DNA of 64,000 nucleotides. Origin: Candidatus Aminicenantes bacterium (lineage in GTDB: Bacteria; Acidobacteriota; Aminicenantia; Aminicenantales; Aminicenantaceae). The notes under the pieces are model-generated. The model made no database searches, had not been told where the DNA came from, and saw nothing but the letters and a program-made list of their open reading frames with translations. Below are positions 2,973 through 38,753 of this stretch, piece by piece (within the stretch, counting starts at the first letter, position 1; each line of letters begins with the position of its first letter). Location: NCBI GenBank assembly GCA_016927475.1, contig JAFGMO010000009.1, forward strand, positions 1,789 to 65,788, given 5' to 3'. Position numbers and translations under genes: made by a program.

Positions 2973-5585
2973 ATGTTACATAATAAAAAATCCTATCTTT
3001 TTGTTTTGGCCTTGACATGCTTTCTTATTGTTCCTCAATTTTTAAGCGCACAGACTTCCCCCGAAGATTTCCTCAAATTCAAAGTTGGTGCCGATAAAAA
3101 ATTAGCCGATTACAGCCAGATCCGGGCTTACTTTCAACAACTCGGCAATGAAACTCCTCTTCTTACTGTTTTTGATATCGGCCAATCCGTCCGTGGAAAA
3201 ACAATGACGATGGCCGTTATCACCTCGGAAGAAAATATGGCCAGGCTGGATGACCTCAAAAAGGTCACCAAAAAACTGCGCGATGCTCGGGGAATTTCAG
3301 AAGAAGAGGCCCAACGTCTGGCTTTAGAAGGGAAAATTTTTGTTCTTATTACCTGTAATCTACACGCCACTGAGATCGCCTCTTCACAGATGGCCCTTGA
3401 ATTGGCCTACGACCTTGTTACGGGAAAAACTCCCTTCGATGCGGCCAAGGTTCTGGAAGACGTCGTCGTTCTCCTCGTTCCCACGTCCAATCCCGACGGG
3501 GAAACAATGGTCACCGAATGGTACCGTAAGTACGTCGGGACAAAATTTGAGGGCGGCCGGATGCCCTGGCTTTATCACGACTATGCCGGTCACGACAACA
3601 ACCGGGACTGGTTTATGTTCAACCTGCCCGAAACGAGGGCCATAACCCGTGTTCTTTACCACGATTGGATCCCTCAGATCCATATTGATGAACACCAAAT
3701 GGGAAGCACAGGGGCCAGGCTTTTTGTTCCGCCCTTCATGGACCCTCCCATTCCCAATGTCCATCCCCTTATCTGGAGAAGCGTCAATCTCTGCGGAGCC
3801 AACATGTCCTATGCCCTCCAGGCCAACGGTTTTAAAGGTGTCGTCCACGACCGCAGCTTCACGGGTTGGTGGATCGGTGCCTGCGACGATACATCCTGGT
3901 TGCATAACTGCACCGGCCTCTTGAGCGAGATGGCTTCCGCAAATATCGCTTCTCCCATTTTCATCGAATCGATTGAAATTCCGGATTCTTATGTCGAAAA
4001 AAGAATGAATTTTCCTGATCCTTGGCTCGGCGGCTGGTGGCGGTTGAGGGATATCGTCGAATATGAGCTCTGCCTTTCCAAAAGCCTGATCGAAACAGCT
4101 TATCTCAATAAAGAAAAATTTCTTTTCAACTTCTACAGGATGAATAAAGACGGCATAGAAAAAGCTCAGAAAGACGACCCCTATGCCTTTGTCATTTCCG
4201 CCGAACAACGCGATGTTCCCACAACCTATCGCATGCTTGACATCCTGAAATTCGGAGGTGTCGAGCTGAAACAAGCAAAAAAAGAATTTGTTGCCGACGG
4301 CAAGATTTACCCTGCAGGCTCATTGGTGGTGCTTATGGCTCAGCCCTACCGTCCTTACGCCAGAACTCTTCTCGAAAAACAGAAATATCCCGATATACGA
4401 CAGTATCCCGGCGGCCCGCCAGTTCCCCCGTATGACAACGCCGCATGGACTCTGCCACTGCAGATGGGCGTCTCCTGTGAACGTATCGAGCACCCCTTTA
4501 AGGCGGAATTGACTCCGCTGGACGAGGTCAAACCGTCAAAAATTTCTTCCATCCCGGAAACCGCCTCATATCTTGTATTGGACTCCAAAACCAATGTTTC
4601 CTACAGCGCCGCCATATCCCTTCTCCAAAAGAAGGTGGACATATCCCGCTCCCGCCAGGGAATCAACGGGAAGGACTTTCATGCCTGTACGGGAAGCTTC
4701 ATCATGAAAAACTCTCCCGCCGTCCGAGAAACACTTTCACCCTTCGTCGAAAAACATTTTCTTCCCGTCTATACTCTGGAATCGGTCGAAGATATTCCCA
4801 ATGATAAGGTCCTTCCACTGCGGATCGGCCTTTACAGGTCGTGGCGGTCCAATATGGACGAAGGATGGACGCGTTATGTCCTCGATGACCTGAAAATTCC
4901 CTACACCACACTTCGCAATAAGGACTTTAAAGGGACGAAAAAAGAAAAAGCCGACTTGAAGAGTTCATTCGATGTCATCATTTTCGCCAGTGAAAATGCC
5001 GATATCATCAAGCTTGGAAAACCCGGATCTTCCTCCGCTTACCGGCGTTATTTTTCCCCCATGCCTCAAGAATACGAAGGGGGTATCGGGAAAGAAGGCA
5101 TTGAAGCTCTGAAGTCCTTCGTTGAAAAAGGAGGAATCCTCGTCACTCTCAATGACGCCTGTGACCTCATCTTCGAAGAATTCAGTCCGCCGGCCAGAAA
5201 CAGCCTGGAGCGGGTCTCACGCGATAAATTTTTCTGTCCGACATCCATTCTTAACGTTGAAGTAGATCCGTCAACACCGATCGGCTATGGTTTGCCCCGC
5301 AACACGGCGGTCATGTTTTCAAGCAGCCTAGCCATGTCGACATCCATCCCTTCTCCCCAATGGAACAGAAAAGTTGTCGCCTCCTTCCCTCAAGAGGACA
5401 TACTCCTCAGCGGATGGCTCCTGGGTGAAGAGTATCTATCCCGGAAGGCCGCGGTTGTCGATCTGTCTTATGAACAAGGACATATTATTCTTATCGGTAT
5501 CCGTTGTCAGTGGAGGGCTCAGTCGCACGGCGCTTATAAATTTCTTTTAAACGCCCTCCTTTATCCCGAAAAGGATAAAGAGTAA
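2973..5585 (+). CDS. Secreted M14 zinc carboxypeptidase-family protein
   Basis: Signal peptide; LHATE (HxxE), NPDG, HDNNRD, DEHQMG motifs; C-terminal GATase-like domain (MDEGWTRYV). GGAGG at 2963-2967 favours ATG 2973 over 2961. Confidence 0.9.
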   Translation: MLHNKKSYLFVLALTCFLIVPQFLSAQTSPEDFLKFKVGADKKLADYSQIRAYFQQLGNETPLLTVFDIGQSVRGKTMTMAVITSEENMARLDDLKKVTKKLRDARGISEEEAQRLALEGKIFVLITCNLHATEIASSQMALELAYDLVTGKTPFDAAKVLEDVVVLLVPTSNPDGETMVTEWYRKYVGTKFEGGRMPWLYHDYAGHDNNRDWFMFNLPETRAITRVLYHDWIPQIHIDEHQMGSTGARLFVPPFMDPPIPNVHPLIWRSVNLCGANMSYALQANGFKGVVHDRSFTGWWIGACDDTSWLHNCTGLLSEMASANIASPIFIESIEIPDSYVEKRMNFPDPWLGGWWRLRDIVEYELCLSKSLIETAYLNKEKFLFNFYRMNKDGIEKAQKDDPYAFVISAEQRDVPTTYRMLDILKFGGVELKQAKKEFVADGKIYPAGSLVVLMAQPYRPYARTLLEKQKYPDIRQYPGGPPVPPYDNAAWTLPLQMGVSCERIEHPFKAELTPLDEVKPSKISSIPETASYLVLDSKTNVSYSAAISLLQKKVDISRSRQGINGKDFHACTGSFIMKNSPAVRETLSPFVEKHFLPVYTLESVEDIPNDKVLPLRIGLYRSWRSNMDEGWTRYVLDDLKIPYTTLRNKDFKGTKKEKADLKSSFDVIIFASENADIIKLGKPGSSSAYRRYFSPMPQEYEGGIGKEGIEALKSFVEKGGILVTLNDACDLIFEEFSPPARNSLERVSRDKFFCPTSILNVEVDPSTPIGYGLPRNTAVMFSSSLAMSTSIPSPQWNRKVVASFPQEDILLSGWLLGEEYLSRKAAVVDLSYEQGHIILIGIRCQWRAQSHGAYKFLLNALLYPEKDKE

Positions 5586-24443: not shown

Positions 24444-24828
24444 CCTGCTTTATTCACGAGCCAAGGGGCTAGGCCGGGTCGGTTGCCGTAGATGCGAGGC
24501 GTCATCCTGTGAAGCTGTGCTTGGCATCGCGAACAGGCTGCAACAAAGCAGATGCGGTTAGATCGGCGGGTTAGGTTGGGTCGGCGCCTGAAAGGTAAAT
24601 TTTGCCAACATTTTCTTAAAATGGTCATGGAAAATGTTTCAGTATAAATGTTGCCAGAAAATATCATTAAATGATACATAATATTATAATTAGCTATTTG
24701 TGTTGGCAAAATTTTTGAATTTTCATGCGCAGACACACCCGCGAACGAAAAAAATGATTGCCTGTAATCCTGGATCACCCGGATGAACCGGGTGATGACT
24801 GGTGTCATTTTTTAGGTAATAATGCAGG
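24444..24828 (+). repeat. Structured non-coding repeat, copy 1 (core ~24444-24720, plus a REP-like hairpin and a second terminus at 24818-24828)
   Basis: Starts CCTGCTTTATTCACGAGCC; shares GAGGCGT..GAAGCTGTGCTTGGCA..GCAACAAAGCAGATGCGG with copies 2 and 3; perfect 14-bp inner IR 24597-24610/24701-24714. Confidence 0.8.
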
Positions 24829-28075: not shown

Positions 28076-28178
28076 AGCACGTCATCGGTGAGTTCTTCCC
28101 CATTCATCATCCCTGATCATAAAGAATAAAGCAGGCTTAACCATATTCAAAATGTTTGCAAGAACAGCAGGGGGGAAA

Positions 28179-28254
28179 TGGTGCGCCTGGCAGGATTCGA
28201 ACCTGCGGCTTTCGGTTCCGGAGACCGACGCTCTATCCCCTGAGCTACAGGCGC
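28179..28254 (-). tRNA. tRNA-Arg(CCG)
   Basis: Reverse complement GCGCCTGTAGCTCAGGGGATAGAGCGTCGGTCTCCGGAACCGAAAGCCGCAGGTTCGAATCCTGCCAGGCGCACCA: 7-bp acceptor stem, anticodon stem TCGGT/ACCGA with CCG, TTCGAAT T-loop, encoded CCA. Confidence 0.97.
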
Positions 28255-28327
28255 ATGAAAAAAATTTATTATAGCAGAATCAAAAAAACATGAATAGTGC
28301 AGGCTTAACGAGCTTATTTTTCTCGTG

Positions 28328-31450: not shown

Positions 31451-31599
31451 GATGATAGCCGGTTTTTATCAGCTGGTTAAAAGTTTATATCATTATTTTT
31501 TCTCAATTTCTAGAAAATTTTTAACATTGATTTTCTAAAGATAGCTTTATATAATAAGCCCGCTTTGTTGGGGATAATTTGCCAGCCACGGAGTGCGTT

Positions 31600-32418
31600 A
31601 TGAGATATAAAGCATTTTTCTGCCTGTTTTTTCTTTTGTTCTTTCCCATTTTTTCCGCTTTCGGCCAATTCAATCCTGAAGAACTAGCCGAAAGAGAAAA
31701 CATCGAGGTTTTTCTCAAAAACGCCGAAATTATCCTTTTCAAAGAAATCGGAGAGGGCGTCACCAAACCCTATAAACTTACTCTGAGAAAAAACGGCGAG
31801 GAGATGGAAGGTTGCTGGAAAAACCCTTACGGTATTCAAAAAGGACACCTTGAAGGCTGGCAGTACGAAATCGCCGCTTACCGTATGGATAAACTGCTTA
31901 ATTTGAACATGATCCCTCCGACTGTCGAACGCGAATTTCAGGGAAAAAGAGGGTCCCTGCAGTTTTGGGTGGATACGGCTTTAAGCGAATTAGACAGAAT
32001 GGAAAATAACATCAACATACCTCGATACAAGCTCCCACACTGGAACAAGATGAAATATCTCACCCGGGCTTTTGACTGCCTCATCGCAAATGAGGACCGA
32101 ACACAGCAAAACATGCGCTACACCGAAGACTGGAGGACCCTTCTTATCGATCATTCCCGTTCATTCCGCTCCAAGCGTAAATACAGGAAACAATTGATGT
32201 ATGGAAAAAACGGCCTTAAAGCCATCCAGCTTTTTCGCATTTTACCACGCTCGTTTGTCCAAAAAGTGGAAGAGCTGACCTTTGAAAATATTAGAAGCGC
32301 CGTCGGTTCAACTCTCAGCGATGAGGAAATTGAAGCCTTACTTGAAAGAAAGGAGCTTCTTCTCAAAGAAATTCAAGAAATGATCAAGGATAAAGGAAAA
32401 GCAAAGGTTCTCTATTAA
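31600..32418 (+). CDS. Secreted atypical kinase-like protein (PI3/PI4-kinase/HipA-like fold), paralog 1
   Basis: Signal peptide MRYKAFFCLFFLLFFPIFSAFG; IGEGVTKP (Gly loop), WK, YEIAAY, MIPPTVER, FDCLIANEDRTQQN, LIDHS. Confidence 0.75.
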   Translation: MRYKAFFCLFFLLFFPIFSAFGQFNPEELAERENIEVFLKNAEIILFKEIGEGVTKPYKLTLRKNGEEMEGCWKNPYGIQKGHLEGWQYEIAAYRMDKLLNLNMIPPTVEREFQGKRGSLQFWVDTALSELDRMENNINIPRYKLPHWNKMKYLTRAFDCLIANEDRTQQNMRYTEDWRTLLIDHSRSFRSKRKYRKQLMYGKNGLKAIQLFRILPRSFVQKVEELTFENIRSAVGSTLSDEEIEALLERKELLLKEIQEMIKDKGKAKVLY

Positions 32419-32446: not shown

Positions 32447-32716
32447 CTTGTATTATTCACGAGCCAAGCTTGCCGCAGGGGCTAGGTTGGGTCGGCGTGA
32501 GGCGTCAGCCTGTGAAGCTGTGCTTGGCACCGCTAACAGGCTGCAACAAAGCAGATGCGGTGAGATCAGCTCGCCTGGAAGGATAATTTGGCCGACATTT
32601 TCTTGAAAACAGTCATGGAAAACGTTTCATTATCAATTTTAACGAAAATCACCATTAAATGACACATAATATTGAAATTATCTGTTGGTGTCGGCCAGAT
32701 TTATGAATAATGCAGG
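32447..32716 (+). repeat. Structured non-coding repeat, copy 2 (270 bp, MITE-like)
   Basis: Ends CTTGTATTATTCA / TGAATAATGCAGG (13 bp, two G.U-type differences); flanked by TTAA on both sides; inner stems CAGCCTGT/ACAGGCTG and AATTTGGCCGACA/TGTCGGCCAGATT. Confidence 0.85.
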
Positions 32717-32744
32717 TTAACTTGAATAGTGCAGGGAGGGCAAC

Positions 32745-33569
32745 ATGAAAAAAATATGGACACCATTCATTCTTGTTTTGATTCTGGGGATCGGAATCGA
32801 ACCTTTGGCCCAATTCACAGCCGAAGAAGTCGCTGAGTTCGCCAAATGGGAAGACTTCCTGGCGACAGCCGAGATCGTAGAACAAGAGCAGATGGGCGGC
32901 CGGCTGGCCGTAACCGAACCCTGGAAACTGACCCTGGAAAAAGACGGGATTCGAAGAAATGCCCTATGGAAAGACGTCCAGGGCCGCCAAAAAGGATATC
33001 TTGAAAACTGGAGATGGGAAATAGCAGCCTATAGATTGAGCAATTATCTCGGCTTGAACATGGTCGCTCCGACCGTGGAACGCCGGTTCCAAGGAAACAG
33101 GGGCTCCATTCAGCTCTGGGTCGATTCTGAAATGTCTTACAGGGATAAAATTGAAAATGACGTCAAAACTCCTTCTTATAAAGTTTTTTATTTTAACAGG
33201 GCCGTTTATCTCCAGCGGGCCTTCGACAACCTCATCGCCAACGAAGATCGTCACATGGGCAATATCCTAATCACCAAGGATTGGCGTTTTATTCTCATCG
33301 ATCACTCCCGCACTTTCCGAACCTCGGGAAAATTTACCAAAAACCTCATCAACACTTCCAAATCGAGAGAAGGCAACAAGGAAATGAAACAACTCCCCAG
33401 GGATTTTGTCGACAAAATTAAGGAGCTCACCGCGGAAAAACTCAAAGAAATCGTCGGAGAATATCTCGATGACAAAGAGATCGAAGCCGTTATGAAAAGG
33501 AAAGTCCTGATTCTTGAAGAAATTGATAAGATTATCAAGAGGGACGGAGAAGACAAAGTCCTCTATTAA
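32745..33569 (+). CDS. Secreted atypical kinase-like protein (PI3/PI4-kinase/HipA-like fold), paralog 2
   Basis: Signal peptide MKKIWTPFILVLILGIGIEPLA; ALWK, WEIAAY, MVAPTVER, FDNLIANEDRHMGN, LIDHS; clearly homologous to 31600..32418 end to end. Confidence 0.78.
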   Translation: MKKIWTPFILVLILGIGIEPLAQFTAEEVAEFAKWEDFLATAEIVEQEQMGGRLAVTEPWKLTLEKDGIRRNALWKDVQGRQKGYLENWRWEIAAYRLSNYLGLNMVAPTVERRFQGNRGSIQLWVDSEMSYRDKIENDVKTPSYKVFYFNRAVYLQRAFDNLIANEDRHMGNILITKDWRFILIDHSRTFRTSGKFTKNLINTSKSREGNKEMKQLPRDFVDKIKELTAEKLKEIVGEYLDDKEIEAVMKRKVLILEEIDKIIKRDGEDKVLY

Positions 33570-33580
33570 TAGCGCAGGTT

Positions 33581-33835
33581 CCTGCGCTTTTCACGAGTCG
33601 AGATTACTGCGGATTCGAGGCGTCGATGGATGAAGCTGTGCTCGGCACCGCGAATCCATCGCAACGAAGCAGACGCGGTGAGATTCGGCTCGCCTGAAAG
33701 GTAAATTTTGCCAACGGTTTATTGAAAAGGTCTACGGCAAATGTACCATTCTCGATTCTGTGGAAAAATATCATTCACTGATAGATAACATTGAAATTTT
33801 ATTTTGGTGTCGGCAAAATTTATGAAAAGCGCAGG
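33581..33835 (+). repeat. Structured non-coding repeat, copy 3 (255 bp, MITE-like)
   Basis: Perfect 13-bp TIR CCTGCGCTTTTCA (33581-33593) / TGAAAAGCGCAGG (33823-33835); inner stem CGATGGAT/ATCCATCG; right end abuts the TGA of 33836..34243. Confidence 0.85.
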
Positions 33836-34243
33836 TCAGAGGTGTTTGACCATTAGCAGCACATTGTGATTCCCATCACGTTTATAAGTAAATTCGTCCA
33901 TCAACTGCCGGGAAAGATGGATGCCCATTCCTCCCTTTAAATTTTCCTTGATCATTCTTTCAACCTGAGGTTTTTCGGCGGTATGGGGATCAAAAGGAAA
34001 TCCAGAGTCTTTAACTTCTAAAAATACCTTTTTCTTATTGGTCCATACACGGATGATGATGTCCCCTTTTTCCTTCGGATATGCATAGCGGATGATATTA
34101 ACGCATATTTCATGCAGAGCAAGCTCAATTTGAAAGTATGTGTCTTCTGAAATCGTGAGTTTCTTGAGTGTTTCTTTTAAAAACGCCCGGATTTTATCCA
34201 ACTCGGCCATATCGCTGGAAACGGTGAGTTGTTTCATGAACAT
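33836..34243 (-). CDS. RsbW-like anti-sigma factor / ATP-binding protein (HATPase_c_2)
   Basis: IELALHEICVNIIRYAY, EVKDSGFPFDP, GGMGIHL..LMDE..Y. Confidence 0.88.
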   Translation of the reverse strand: MFMKQLTVSSDMAELDKIRAFLKETLKKLTISEDTYFQIELALHEICVNIIRYAYPKEKGDIIIRVWTNKKKVFLEVKDSGFPFDPHTAEKPQVERMIKENLKGGMGIHLSRQLMDEFTYKRDGNHNVLLMVKHL

Positions 34244-38508: not shown

Positions 38509-38753
38509 GGAACTCCCAATGATAAGCTGGCAAAATTATTCCACACCTATCGGGTAAAGTCAAAATAATAGTCATCATTCATTCATAGAGGTTTTTACGG
38601 TTACTTGGGTTTATAAAGTCGTTTTCACAGGTTGTATAAATCTCCCCCGGGTTAGGAAAATGTTTCATTATCAACTTTGCCCGGAAACATCATTAAGTGA
38701 CATATAATAATAAAACTATATCATGATATCAGCTTGATTTTTAATCATGCAGG

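Follow-up and report, generated by a model that had tools for sequence, protein, structure and literature searches.

The question raised by a 64,000-nucleotide stretch of DNA from Candidatus Aminicenantes bacterium (NCBI GenBank assembly GCA_016927475.1, contig JAFGMO010000009.1, positions 1,789 to 65,788; hereafter the window) is why a short repeat present in three near-complete copies, here called A, B and C, keeps the same fold while its sequence changes. A preliminary description of the window had regarded the repeat as a dispersed element resembling transposable elements of the miniature inverted-repeat type (MITEs), and each of the sequences that it quoted for the three copies and their stems was found again in its place. 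The analysis showed that the fold of a module within the repeat is kept by compensating mutations, both in this genome and in short elements resembling transposons from more than ten bacterial phyla; this 107-nt module very probably has a function.

The repeats as a family of miniature transposons

The genome (4.99 Mb in 104 contigs) was searched by BLAST and iterated nhmmer. About 230 nhmmer matches were collected, 85 of them full length, and separate profiles gave 147 copies of the 5' folded module and 144 of the 3' hairpin. The elements fall mainly into size classes of 254, 182 and about 260 bp, and since the helices of the module vary freely no open reading frame (ORF) is conserved in them. 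Full-length copies start with CCTG[Y]NTTATTCA and finish with TGAATAANNCAGG; the 95 elements with both arms have 13-bp terminal inverted repeats (TIRs) of the type CCTG....ATTCA / TGAAT....CAGG. The 4-nt flanks are identical in 28 of these 95 elements and differ by one mismatch in 22 more, against 0/95 in the control taken from the next 4 nt outward, and TTAA is the commonest duplication (14 of the 28). The three repeats of the window are members of a non-autonomous DNA transposon family with TTAA-like 4-bp insertion sites, as the MITE-like nature first ascribed to them implied. About 850 such arms occur genome-wide, bounding several size classes. No size peak was seen among TIR pairs lying 0.4-6 kb apart in this genome, nor were multi-copy ORFs found in it. 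The split 5'/3' pairs on contigs C9 and C45, considered as a full element with the same body, proved to be coincidental, with ordinary genes inside.

About 30 module-bearing copies have a mini or 5'-truncated copy directly before them, separated by a spacer of 2-5 nt (e.g., C48:152535, C27:101776, C75:99644, C22:111865 and, in the window, 33566-33578). The right arm of the preceding partial copy is identical to that of the full copy, idiosyncratic variants included, and is closer to it than to the reverse-complemented left arm. Such an arrangement points to a mechanism of tandem duplication, 'partial + full'.

A discrete module within a palindromic core

The element is built of two layers, a palindromic core and the discrete module. 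The latter runs from CGAGCC to CCUGAAAGG and lies between TTCA and TAAATTT of the left arm; without it the core reads TTCA-TAAATTTGGCCG...CGGCCAAATTTA-TGAA and is a perfect long palindrome. Elements that contain the module are 254 and 182 bp long, their counterparts without it 147 and 75 bp, respectively, and presence or absence is base-exact at TTCA^TAAATTT in three kinds of core. When 83 core hairpins were arranged in a tree, the 11 copies lacking the module were scattered over it; its well supported branches force at least four changes by gain or loss of the module, and 11 changes are needed on the best tree. Template switching from one arm of a palindrome to the other would lead to such repeated exact loss, and a mobility of the module's own is therefore not required.

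Structure of the fold and covariation

The fold of the element has six parts, beginning with the terminal stem formed by both arms. P1 is CGAGCC/GGCUCG, and P2 is CUUGCCGC/GCGGUAAG, which runs on through an A-U pair, tandem G.A/A.G and three further pairs. The tandem G.A pairs belong to an irregular invariant helix in which CAGAUGC is joined with GCAGAUG, beside AGGCG / GCAAC. A small conserved internal loop, GAGGCGU / CAACRAA, comes next, followed by P3, a GAA/GA loop and the P4 hairpin, then by P5, a 3-bp hairpin with a triloop, and finally by the long core hairpin. The module folds as a rod (P1, P2, irregular helix, P3, loop, P4) on the + strand only. For 78 copies the RNAalifold values were -57 (+ strand) and -28 (- strand); for copy C the values were -94.6 kcal/mol (z -5.9) and -77.0, respectively, and its minimum-energy + strand fold is the consensus structure.

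It was found that standard pairs fill 96.0% of the pair cells in 88 distinct copies, compared with 87.3% in shuffles and 30-37% with slid partners, and that 21 of the 31 pairs were changed on both sides. None of 500 shuffles reached any of five covariation measures. The pairs with the highest mutual information, obtained without structural input, were exactly those of P3 and P5. P3 occurs as 47 haplotypes, among them at least 14 distinct perfectly paired 8-bp helices, and some of its versions are common to many copies. The covariation of the nested stems, proposed initially from three copies, holds in this larger set, and the individual changes then quoted are all present: P3 is CAGCCTGT (32506-32513) / ACAGGCTG (32536-32543) in copy B and CGATGGAT/ATCCATCG in copy C, the arms change in concert from CTTGTATTATTCA/TGAATAATGCAGG in B to CCTGCGCTTTTCA/TGAAAAGCGCAGG in C, and copy A has TGCCAACA/TGTTGGCA as its long inner stem, against GGCCGACA/TGTCGGCC in copy B. 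Between the two terminal arms there is a transition at position 5, by which the pair becomes U.G in the present genome and G.U in those of other genera.

In the pair cells read on the + strand G.U was counted 236 times and A.C 37 times. Such an excess on one strand cannot be produced by a double-stranded or strand-symmetric process, and it bears out the suggestion that the fold is under selection, on the + strand. It also bears on an explanation in which there is no selection on the fold, the pairs being restored by quasi-palindrome correction (intrastrand template switching) and a few subfamilies then being amplified. The element is indeed palindromic, its arms change in concert, the neighbouring partial and full copies have the same idiosyncratic arms, and several P3 versions are found in many copies. 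Template switching is, however, strand-symmetric, and the six-fold preference for G.U is seen on one strand; the invariant positions are exactly those which are not palindromic (the tandem G.A, and AGGCG against GCAAC); and the structure persists with unrelated helices and invariant loops in more than ten phyla. An origin by palindrome correction is therefore highly improbable. The idea that the stems are merely fixed variants of subfamilies fails likewise against the many independent paired versions and the unrelated helices that form the same structure in other phyla.

The preliminary description had named no matching Rfam family, and this was borne out: the three window copies gave no match in Rfam 15 at the gathering thresholds or at E<=10, and no family matched the distant homologues. 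No description of the module was found in the searchable literature, where a search with sequence words gave unrelated primers only.

Distribution in the family, in Acidobacteriota and in other phyla

According to a covariance model, 85 of the 96 genomes of the family (as defined in GTDB) contain the module, and so do 35 of its 39 genera; the copies inspected have the same TTCA^CGAG...AAGG^TAAA junction and CCTGGATTATTCA-type arms. Full-length matches were obtained in seven further Acidobacteriota genomes, in which every helix is different in sequence and the elements CAGAUGC-R-AGGCG, GCAAC-R-NN-GCAGAUG and CCCGAAGGG are kept. In most of these seven it is found in other palindromic MITEs, again within the left arm; their ends include GAGCCTGTCCGAG..., GAGGCCGTGGTG... 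and CAGGCTGCTGAA..., and the flanks are CTAG; no inverted ends were seen around it in two Acidobacteriota genomes (G097 and G189).

One of these two provides a single module of 69.9 bits (locus L068, G097:C1:1752025-1752136) with no detectable inverted ends, which adjoins the 3' end of a tmRNA gene (Rfam RF00023, 165 bits) on the opposite strand with a 7-nt overlap. An integrase or island at this ssrA-adjacent copy was considered and rejected, the neighbours being a MacB/FtsX permease, a phosphoesterase and a weak HNH protein.

The pattern of the invariant junctions was met in at least 117 stretches of a collection with one genome per species, where about 28 are expected by chance according to an estimate. 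Among the pattern matches listed, the length of the core peaks at 62-65 nt and 32 were confirmed by the model, nearly all of them full-length. The confirmed carriers belong to Kiritimatiellae, Bacteroidales, Lentisphaeraceae, Elusimicrobia and Omnitrophota, to Desulfobulbaceae and Casimicrobiaceae, to Thiobacillus, Halothiobacillus, Guyparkeria, Microbulbifer, Marinobacteraceae, Halopseudomonas and a Neisseria species, and to Phascolarctobacterium and Faecalibacterium, so that Pseudomonadota, Bacteroidota and Bacillota are among the phyla represented; one viral contig is also included. BLAST against plasmids and phages gave no match. In a cross-genome alignment pairing amounted to 94.7% with 30 of 31 pairs covarying, and in a cross-phylum alignment to 91.1% with 31 of 31, the paired percentages being inflated since both alignments were fitted to the model.

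Ends could be traced in 43 of the 122 pattern matches listed, and the module was located mostly 29-37 nt inside the left end. These elements are about 165 or 265-285 bp long, and their ends are IS5-like (e.g., GGAAGGTGCGAAAA, GGAACCTCTGA, GGAAACTCTG) with CTAG, TTAA or CTAA flanks.

In a metagenome-assembled genome of Kiritimatiellae (L088) two inverted module-bearing elements (434-548 and 4346-4460) bracket 3.8 kb with two ORFs of 490 and 679 aa, neither matched in Pfam. From its layout, this pair is possibly a composite, Pack-MITE-like unit.

Candidate mobilising enzymes

Intact insertion sequences (ISs) of the IS1380 family in the same GTDB family have the ends CCTGATCTATTCATAAATT... / ...AATTTATGAATAGATCAGG, flanked by TTAA, CTAA or CTAG. 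One of them (L009, 1626 bp) has the ends CCTGAATAATTCATAAA... / ...AATTTATGAATAAATCAGG, and its transposase scores 399 bits against NCBIfam NF033539, 'IS1380 family transposase'; four more (L010, L021, L031 and L032) possess the same ends with TTAA or CTAA flanks. Intact elements with matching ends are present in five sister genomes. The match between the MITE and IS1380 ends covers 13 bp at the left end and about 21 bp at the right one, with a subterminal AATTTA also in common. Judged from these ends, an IS1380-type transposase most likely moves the MITEs in trans. For the TTAA-specific piggyBac transposases, those of IS1380 are the outgroup from prokaryotes (PMC10813416), and the TTAA preference of the MITE fits this relation. 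The genome itself contains a decayed IS1380-type gene (C74:26843-27975) with four stop codons and without the arms, and none of its DDE_Tnp_1 matches has arms.

A second IS1380 subgroup in the sister genomes (L011-L017) has different ends, CCAATATTCCCCATAT... / ...ATATGGGGAATATGG, and may be the mobiliser of other MITE families in this genome.

The module was sought by the covariance model in 34 loci, including 29 of the IS1380 family (L009-L037), and no IS locus has it. A complete IS with the same ends, foreseen in the preliminary description as a sign that the stems are only fixed subfamily variants, does exist in the relatives; the covariation is not explained away by it, because the folded module is absent from those ISs. 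The same absence speaks against the module as the 5' untranslated leader of a transposase, inherited by the MITEs through internal deletion of an IS and covarying under selection on that IS. A leader would account for a module that is always near the left end and points inward, and the pattern of selected shared variants and neutral rare ones (see below) fits it. Nevertheless, the ORFs beside modules in other phyla (19 in one check, about 20 in all) include no transposase, and the 14 or more paired P3 versions of a single genome would require as many source ISs, so that a leader origin has very little probability.

The preliminary description had also thought of a substrate for an enzyme of the HUH/RAYT type. 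Two intact RAYT-like Y1-transposase genes are encoded in the genome (C46:22766-23521 and C103:169032-169739; 251 and 235 aa), which reach 67.9 bits compared with a curated NCBIfam cut-off of 80; neither arms, modules nor flanking repeats were found at their flanks, and TnpB is absent from the genome. The repeat has inverted termini, 4-bp duplications and ends matching IS1380, and neither this proposal nor a classification as an IS200/IS605-derived PATE or a REPIN finds support.

These genes have a bearing on the view that the module is an independent mobile element, inserted at a fixed site of hairpin MITEs and moving by a single-stranded intermediate (of HUH/IS200 type, IS110 type or intron-like). 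The base-exact junction in three kinds of core and the repeated gain or loss on the tree would agree with it, as would the fact that P1 joins the two ends of the module, the occurrence of the module in MITEs with unrelated ends (IS1380-like, IS5-like GG..., CAGGCTGCTGA...) and the RAYT-like genes themselves. However, the module is never found away from the left arm in this genome, no conserved target sequence is common to the MITE types, the RAYT-like genes lie below the cut-off with no modules beside them, and arm-to-arm template switching, which removes any asymmetric insert, is a simpler account of exact loss. Independent mobility of the module is accordingly very improbable.

Selection, strand and transcription

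Pair states found in only one or two copies comprised 48 Watson-Crick, 40 G.U, 33 A.C and 74 other combinations. These rare states are nearly as predicted for neutral single hits, apart from an excess of doubly changed Watson-Crick pairs (the 48). Those shared by at least three copies were mostly paired (34 Watson-Crick, 22 G.U, 8 A.C, 15 other). With frequency taken as a proxy, selection appears to act on the lineages that keep propagating, while inserted copies then decay. A singleton-per-column test of selection after insertion was saturated and no use was made of it.

No promoter was found on the + strand inside the element, where the only promoter-like sites face the opposite strand, and copies B and C showed no site resembling a terminator. 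Sigma-70-like promoters are present on the minus strand at 24709-24681 and 32694-32666 (TTGCCA/CCGACA, 17 nt, TAATAT/TATTAT); they are built from the 3' stem of the core hairpin and the AU-rich loop and are directed leftward, antisense through the module. Of 87 genes located 5' of an element, 54 are directed away from it.

These data concern the main rival of the explanation favoured below, the other three being weaker: the module would be a functional RNA that is merely spread by the MITE. It could act in cis, as an insulating or regulatory element of read-through transcripts (a terminator, a stabiliser, a processing site, a riboswitch-like sensor or a self-cleaving ribozyme), or be a small RNA gene of benefit to the host or to the element. 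A rod with invariant internal loops and variable helices, kept over more than ten phyla and tolerating G.U on one strand only, is what such an RNA would look like; the insertions lie right at stop codons and near start codons, and transcripts of ERIC, Correia and BOX with stable folds have regulatory effects (PMC10969869, PMC3184786). Against this stand the want of an internal + strand promoter and of a terminator-like site, promoter-like sites that point the other way, a folded strand which is antisense in 29 of 42 co-directional cases, and RNA sequencing runs without the sequence. Moreover, the rate at which rare variants disrupt pairs is close to neutral, which means that most inserted copies are not under purifying selection. 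A functional RNA only carried along by the MITE is therefore considered unlikely.

The favoured explanation

Old shared variants keep their pairing and rare ones look neutral, and the fold would thus be needed in cis by the lineages that propagate, not by each inserted copy. On the whole, the repeats represent a MITE family with IS1380-type ends that contains a discrete, strand-specific folded module, the fold of which is probably needed in cis for propagation. How this need would arise can be proposed tentatively. The folded single strand, whether a transcript or DNA at the fork or in the course of repair, might bind a protein; this partner might be the transposase or a host factor, contacted through the invariant irregular helix; and the binding might promote the mobilisation or the copying of the element.

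It is tempting to speculate further, although this is more doubtful than the mechanism just outlined, that the module belongs to a previously unrecognised pan-bacterial class of functional single-stranded nucleic acids. Its members would be protein-binding or catalytic rods with invariant tandem-G.A and AGGCG/GCAAC loops, which ride in MITEs of unrelated transposase families (IS1380-like, IS5-like) and promote their spread.

Several points weigh against a fold needed in cis for propagation. Perfect duplications are present in only 29% of the copies, and an intact autonomous partner with these ends was not found in the genome itself. To our knowledge, neither a single-stranded intermediate nor an internal cis-element has been established for DDE transposition of the IS1380, IS5 or piggyBac type. 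The division into rare and shared states is a proxy for branch age and not a tree-based test, and the alignments beyond this genome were, as mentioned, fitted to the model. With respect to the co-directional neighbour genes the folded strand is sense in 13 cases and antisense in 29 (of 42), and this weak bias neither points to a clear role at the level of the host nor rules one out. None of the RNA sequencing runs searched contains the element, and the folded strand could thus be RNA or single-stranded DNA.

Relation to known systems

Correia/NEMIS of Neisseria, ERIC/IRU, BOX, bcr1, Chunjie and QMITE are likewise short, non-coding and multi-copy, with TIRs, duplications, intergenic positions and long stem-loops (PMC10969869, PMC3184786). 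In all these MITEs the fold is essentially the palindrome and each family is limited to a genus or family, whereas the present module is non-palindromic, has invariant internal loops, covaries across more than ten phyla and resides in MITEs with unrelated ends. The IS1380 family (e.g., ISEcp1) and piggyBac are similar in the CC starts and the 4-bp TTAA-like duplication; the present element differs from IS1380 in having no transposase gene and in a left end that the module breaks off after 13 bp. Among IS5-family MITEs, the experimentally mobile MITEPsy1 of Pseudomonas syringae (PMC3189936) is comparable to the module carriers outside Aminicenantes, which likewise show GGAAGG/GGAACC-type ends and 4-nt flanks of CTAG or YTAA. 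As far as descriptions can be compared, it is too short at 100 nt for a 107-nt module, and no structured core is described for it.

REPIN/REP with RAYT and the PATEs of IS200/IS605 also form strand-specific, G.T-tolerant hairpins in many intergenic copies; in these, TIRs and target duplications are missing and there is linkage to a Y1 HUH transposase, in contrast to the present element with its TIRs, duplications and no RAYT linkage. A conserved internal domain common to non-autonomous elements with different mobilising ends is represented in vertebrates by the CORE-SINEs and V-SINEs. Those are eukaryotic retroelements conserved at the level of sequence, whereas the module is a passenger of bacterial DNA transposons conserved at the level of structure.

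MITEs are usually viewed as transposon ends that have decayed, with folds that simply follow from palindromy. In the present case compensatory change keeps a non-palindromic module in shape, with identical junction nucleotides from Acidobacteriota to Neisseria and Faecalibacterium and in elements whose transposase-specific ends differ. Such conservation points to a cis-acting function outside the current models of DDE transposition, or else to an undescribed widespread class of RNA missing from Rfam. If the pan-bacterial class were real, a conserved 'mobility module', similar in kind to the core domains of eukaryotic SINEs, could be present in bacterial MITEs. What is new here is the type of the partner IS, the dissection into core and module, and the pan-bacterial motif, absent from Rfam, in MITEs with different ends. 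Since there are cultured carriers (Halopseudomonas pachastrellae, Guyparkeria hydrothermalis, Phascolarctobacterium succinatutens, a Neisseria species), these proposals are directly testable.

Features of the window

Table 1. Positions of the three copies, their parts and related arm sequences in the window (bit scores from the covariance model).
Feature	Positions	Strand	Remarks
Copy A	24444-24828	+	385 bp; carries three nested insertions; module 74.9 bits
Copy A, left arm CCTGCTTTATTCA	24444-24456	+	
Copy A, module	about 24457-24595	+	contains two G-rich 17-mers (24466, 24568)
Copy A, core hairpin	24596-24714	+	
Copy A, nested second, unrelated repeat	about 24720-24815	+	
Copy A, right arm GTAATAATGCAGG	24816-24828	+	
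Copy B	32447-32716	+	module 95.3 bits
Copy B, left target-site duplication TTAA	32443-32446		identical TTAA after right end, 32717-32720
Copy B, left TIR CTTGTATTATTCA	32447-32459	+	
Copy B, folded module P1-P5	32458-32584	+	model positions 1-111; 17-nt G-rich insertion 32479-32495
Copy B, core hairpin	32584-32703	+	14-bp stem TAATTTGGCCGACA / TGTCGGCCAGATTTA, AU-rich loop
Copy B, right TIR TGAATAATGCAGG	32704-32716	+	then TTAA
Copy C	33581-33835	+	module 113.8 bits
Copy C, left TIR CCTGCGCTTTTCA	33581-33593	+	perfect complement of right arm
Copy C, folded module	33592-33703	+	P3 = CGATGGAT (33624-33631) / ATCCATCG (33654-33661)
Copy C, core hairpin TAAATTTTGCCAAC / GTCGGCAAAATTTA	33702-33822	+	
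Copy C, right TIR TGAAAAGCGCAGG	33823-33835	+	
Partial fourth copy	38655-38753	+	core hairpin 3' part and right arm TTAATCATGCAGG, then TTAA
Solo right arm TGAATAGTGCAGG	32723-32735	+	6 nt past copy B; 9 nt before start-codon region of ORF 32745-33569
Right-arm-like sequence TTAATAGCGCAGG	33566-33578	+	immediately upstream of copy C

The partial fourth copy was found by BLAST (C96:40443-40506 in the coordinates of the genome contig). The bases directly after the right arm of copy C, TCA, are the stop codon of a minus-strand ORF (33836-34243), and the right-arm-like sequence before this copy overlaps the stop codon of ORF 32745-33569 and has the unusual GCGC variant of copy C. The latter ORF (274 aa) and ORF 31579-32418 (279 aa) are tandem paralogues, both ending in ...KVLY*, and each has a MITE copy 8-28 nt downstream (C and B, respectively). 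As copies B and C belong to different P3 subfamilies, this arrangement is not simply one duplication of a gene plus its element. Further upstream in the window, tRNA-Arg(CCG) at 28179-28254 is flanked by the right-arm-like sequences AGAATAAAGCAGG and TGAATAGTGCAGG (28123-28135 and 28291-28303), each followed by CTTA.

The G-rich 17-mer GGGYTAGGYYGGGTCGG occurs at varying positions of the module, at 24466-24482 and 24568-24584 in copy A and at 32479-32495 in copy B, and about 35 genomic copies were counted at up to two mismatches. It resembles either a very small insertion unit or a templated insertion that recurs, and a G-quadruplex could form from it. The unrelated repeat of about 100 bp at 24720-24815, situated within the right arm of copy A (TGAA^...^TAATAATGCAGG), gave 71 BLAST matches genome-wide and terminates in a terminator-like hairpin with a T run (24787-24813).

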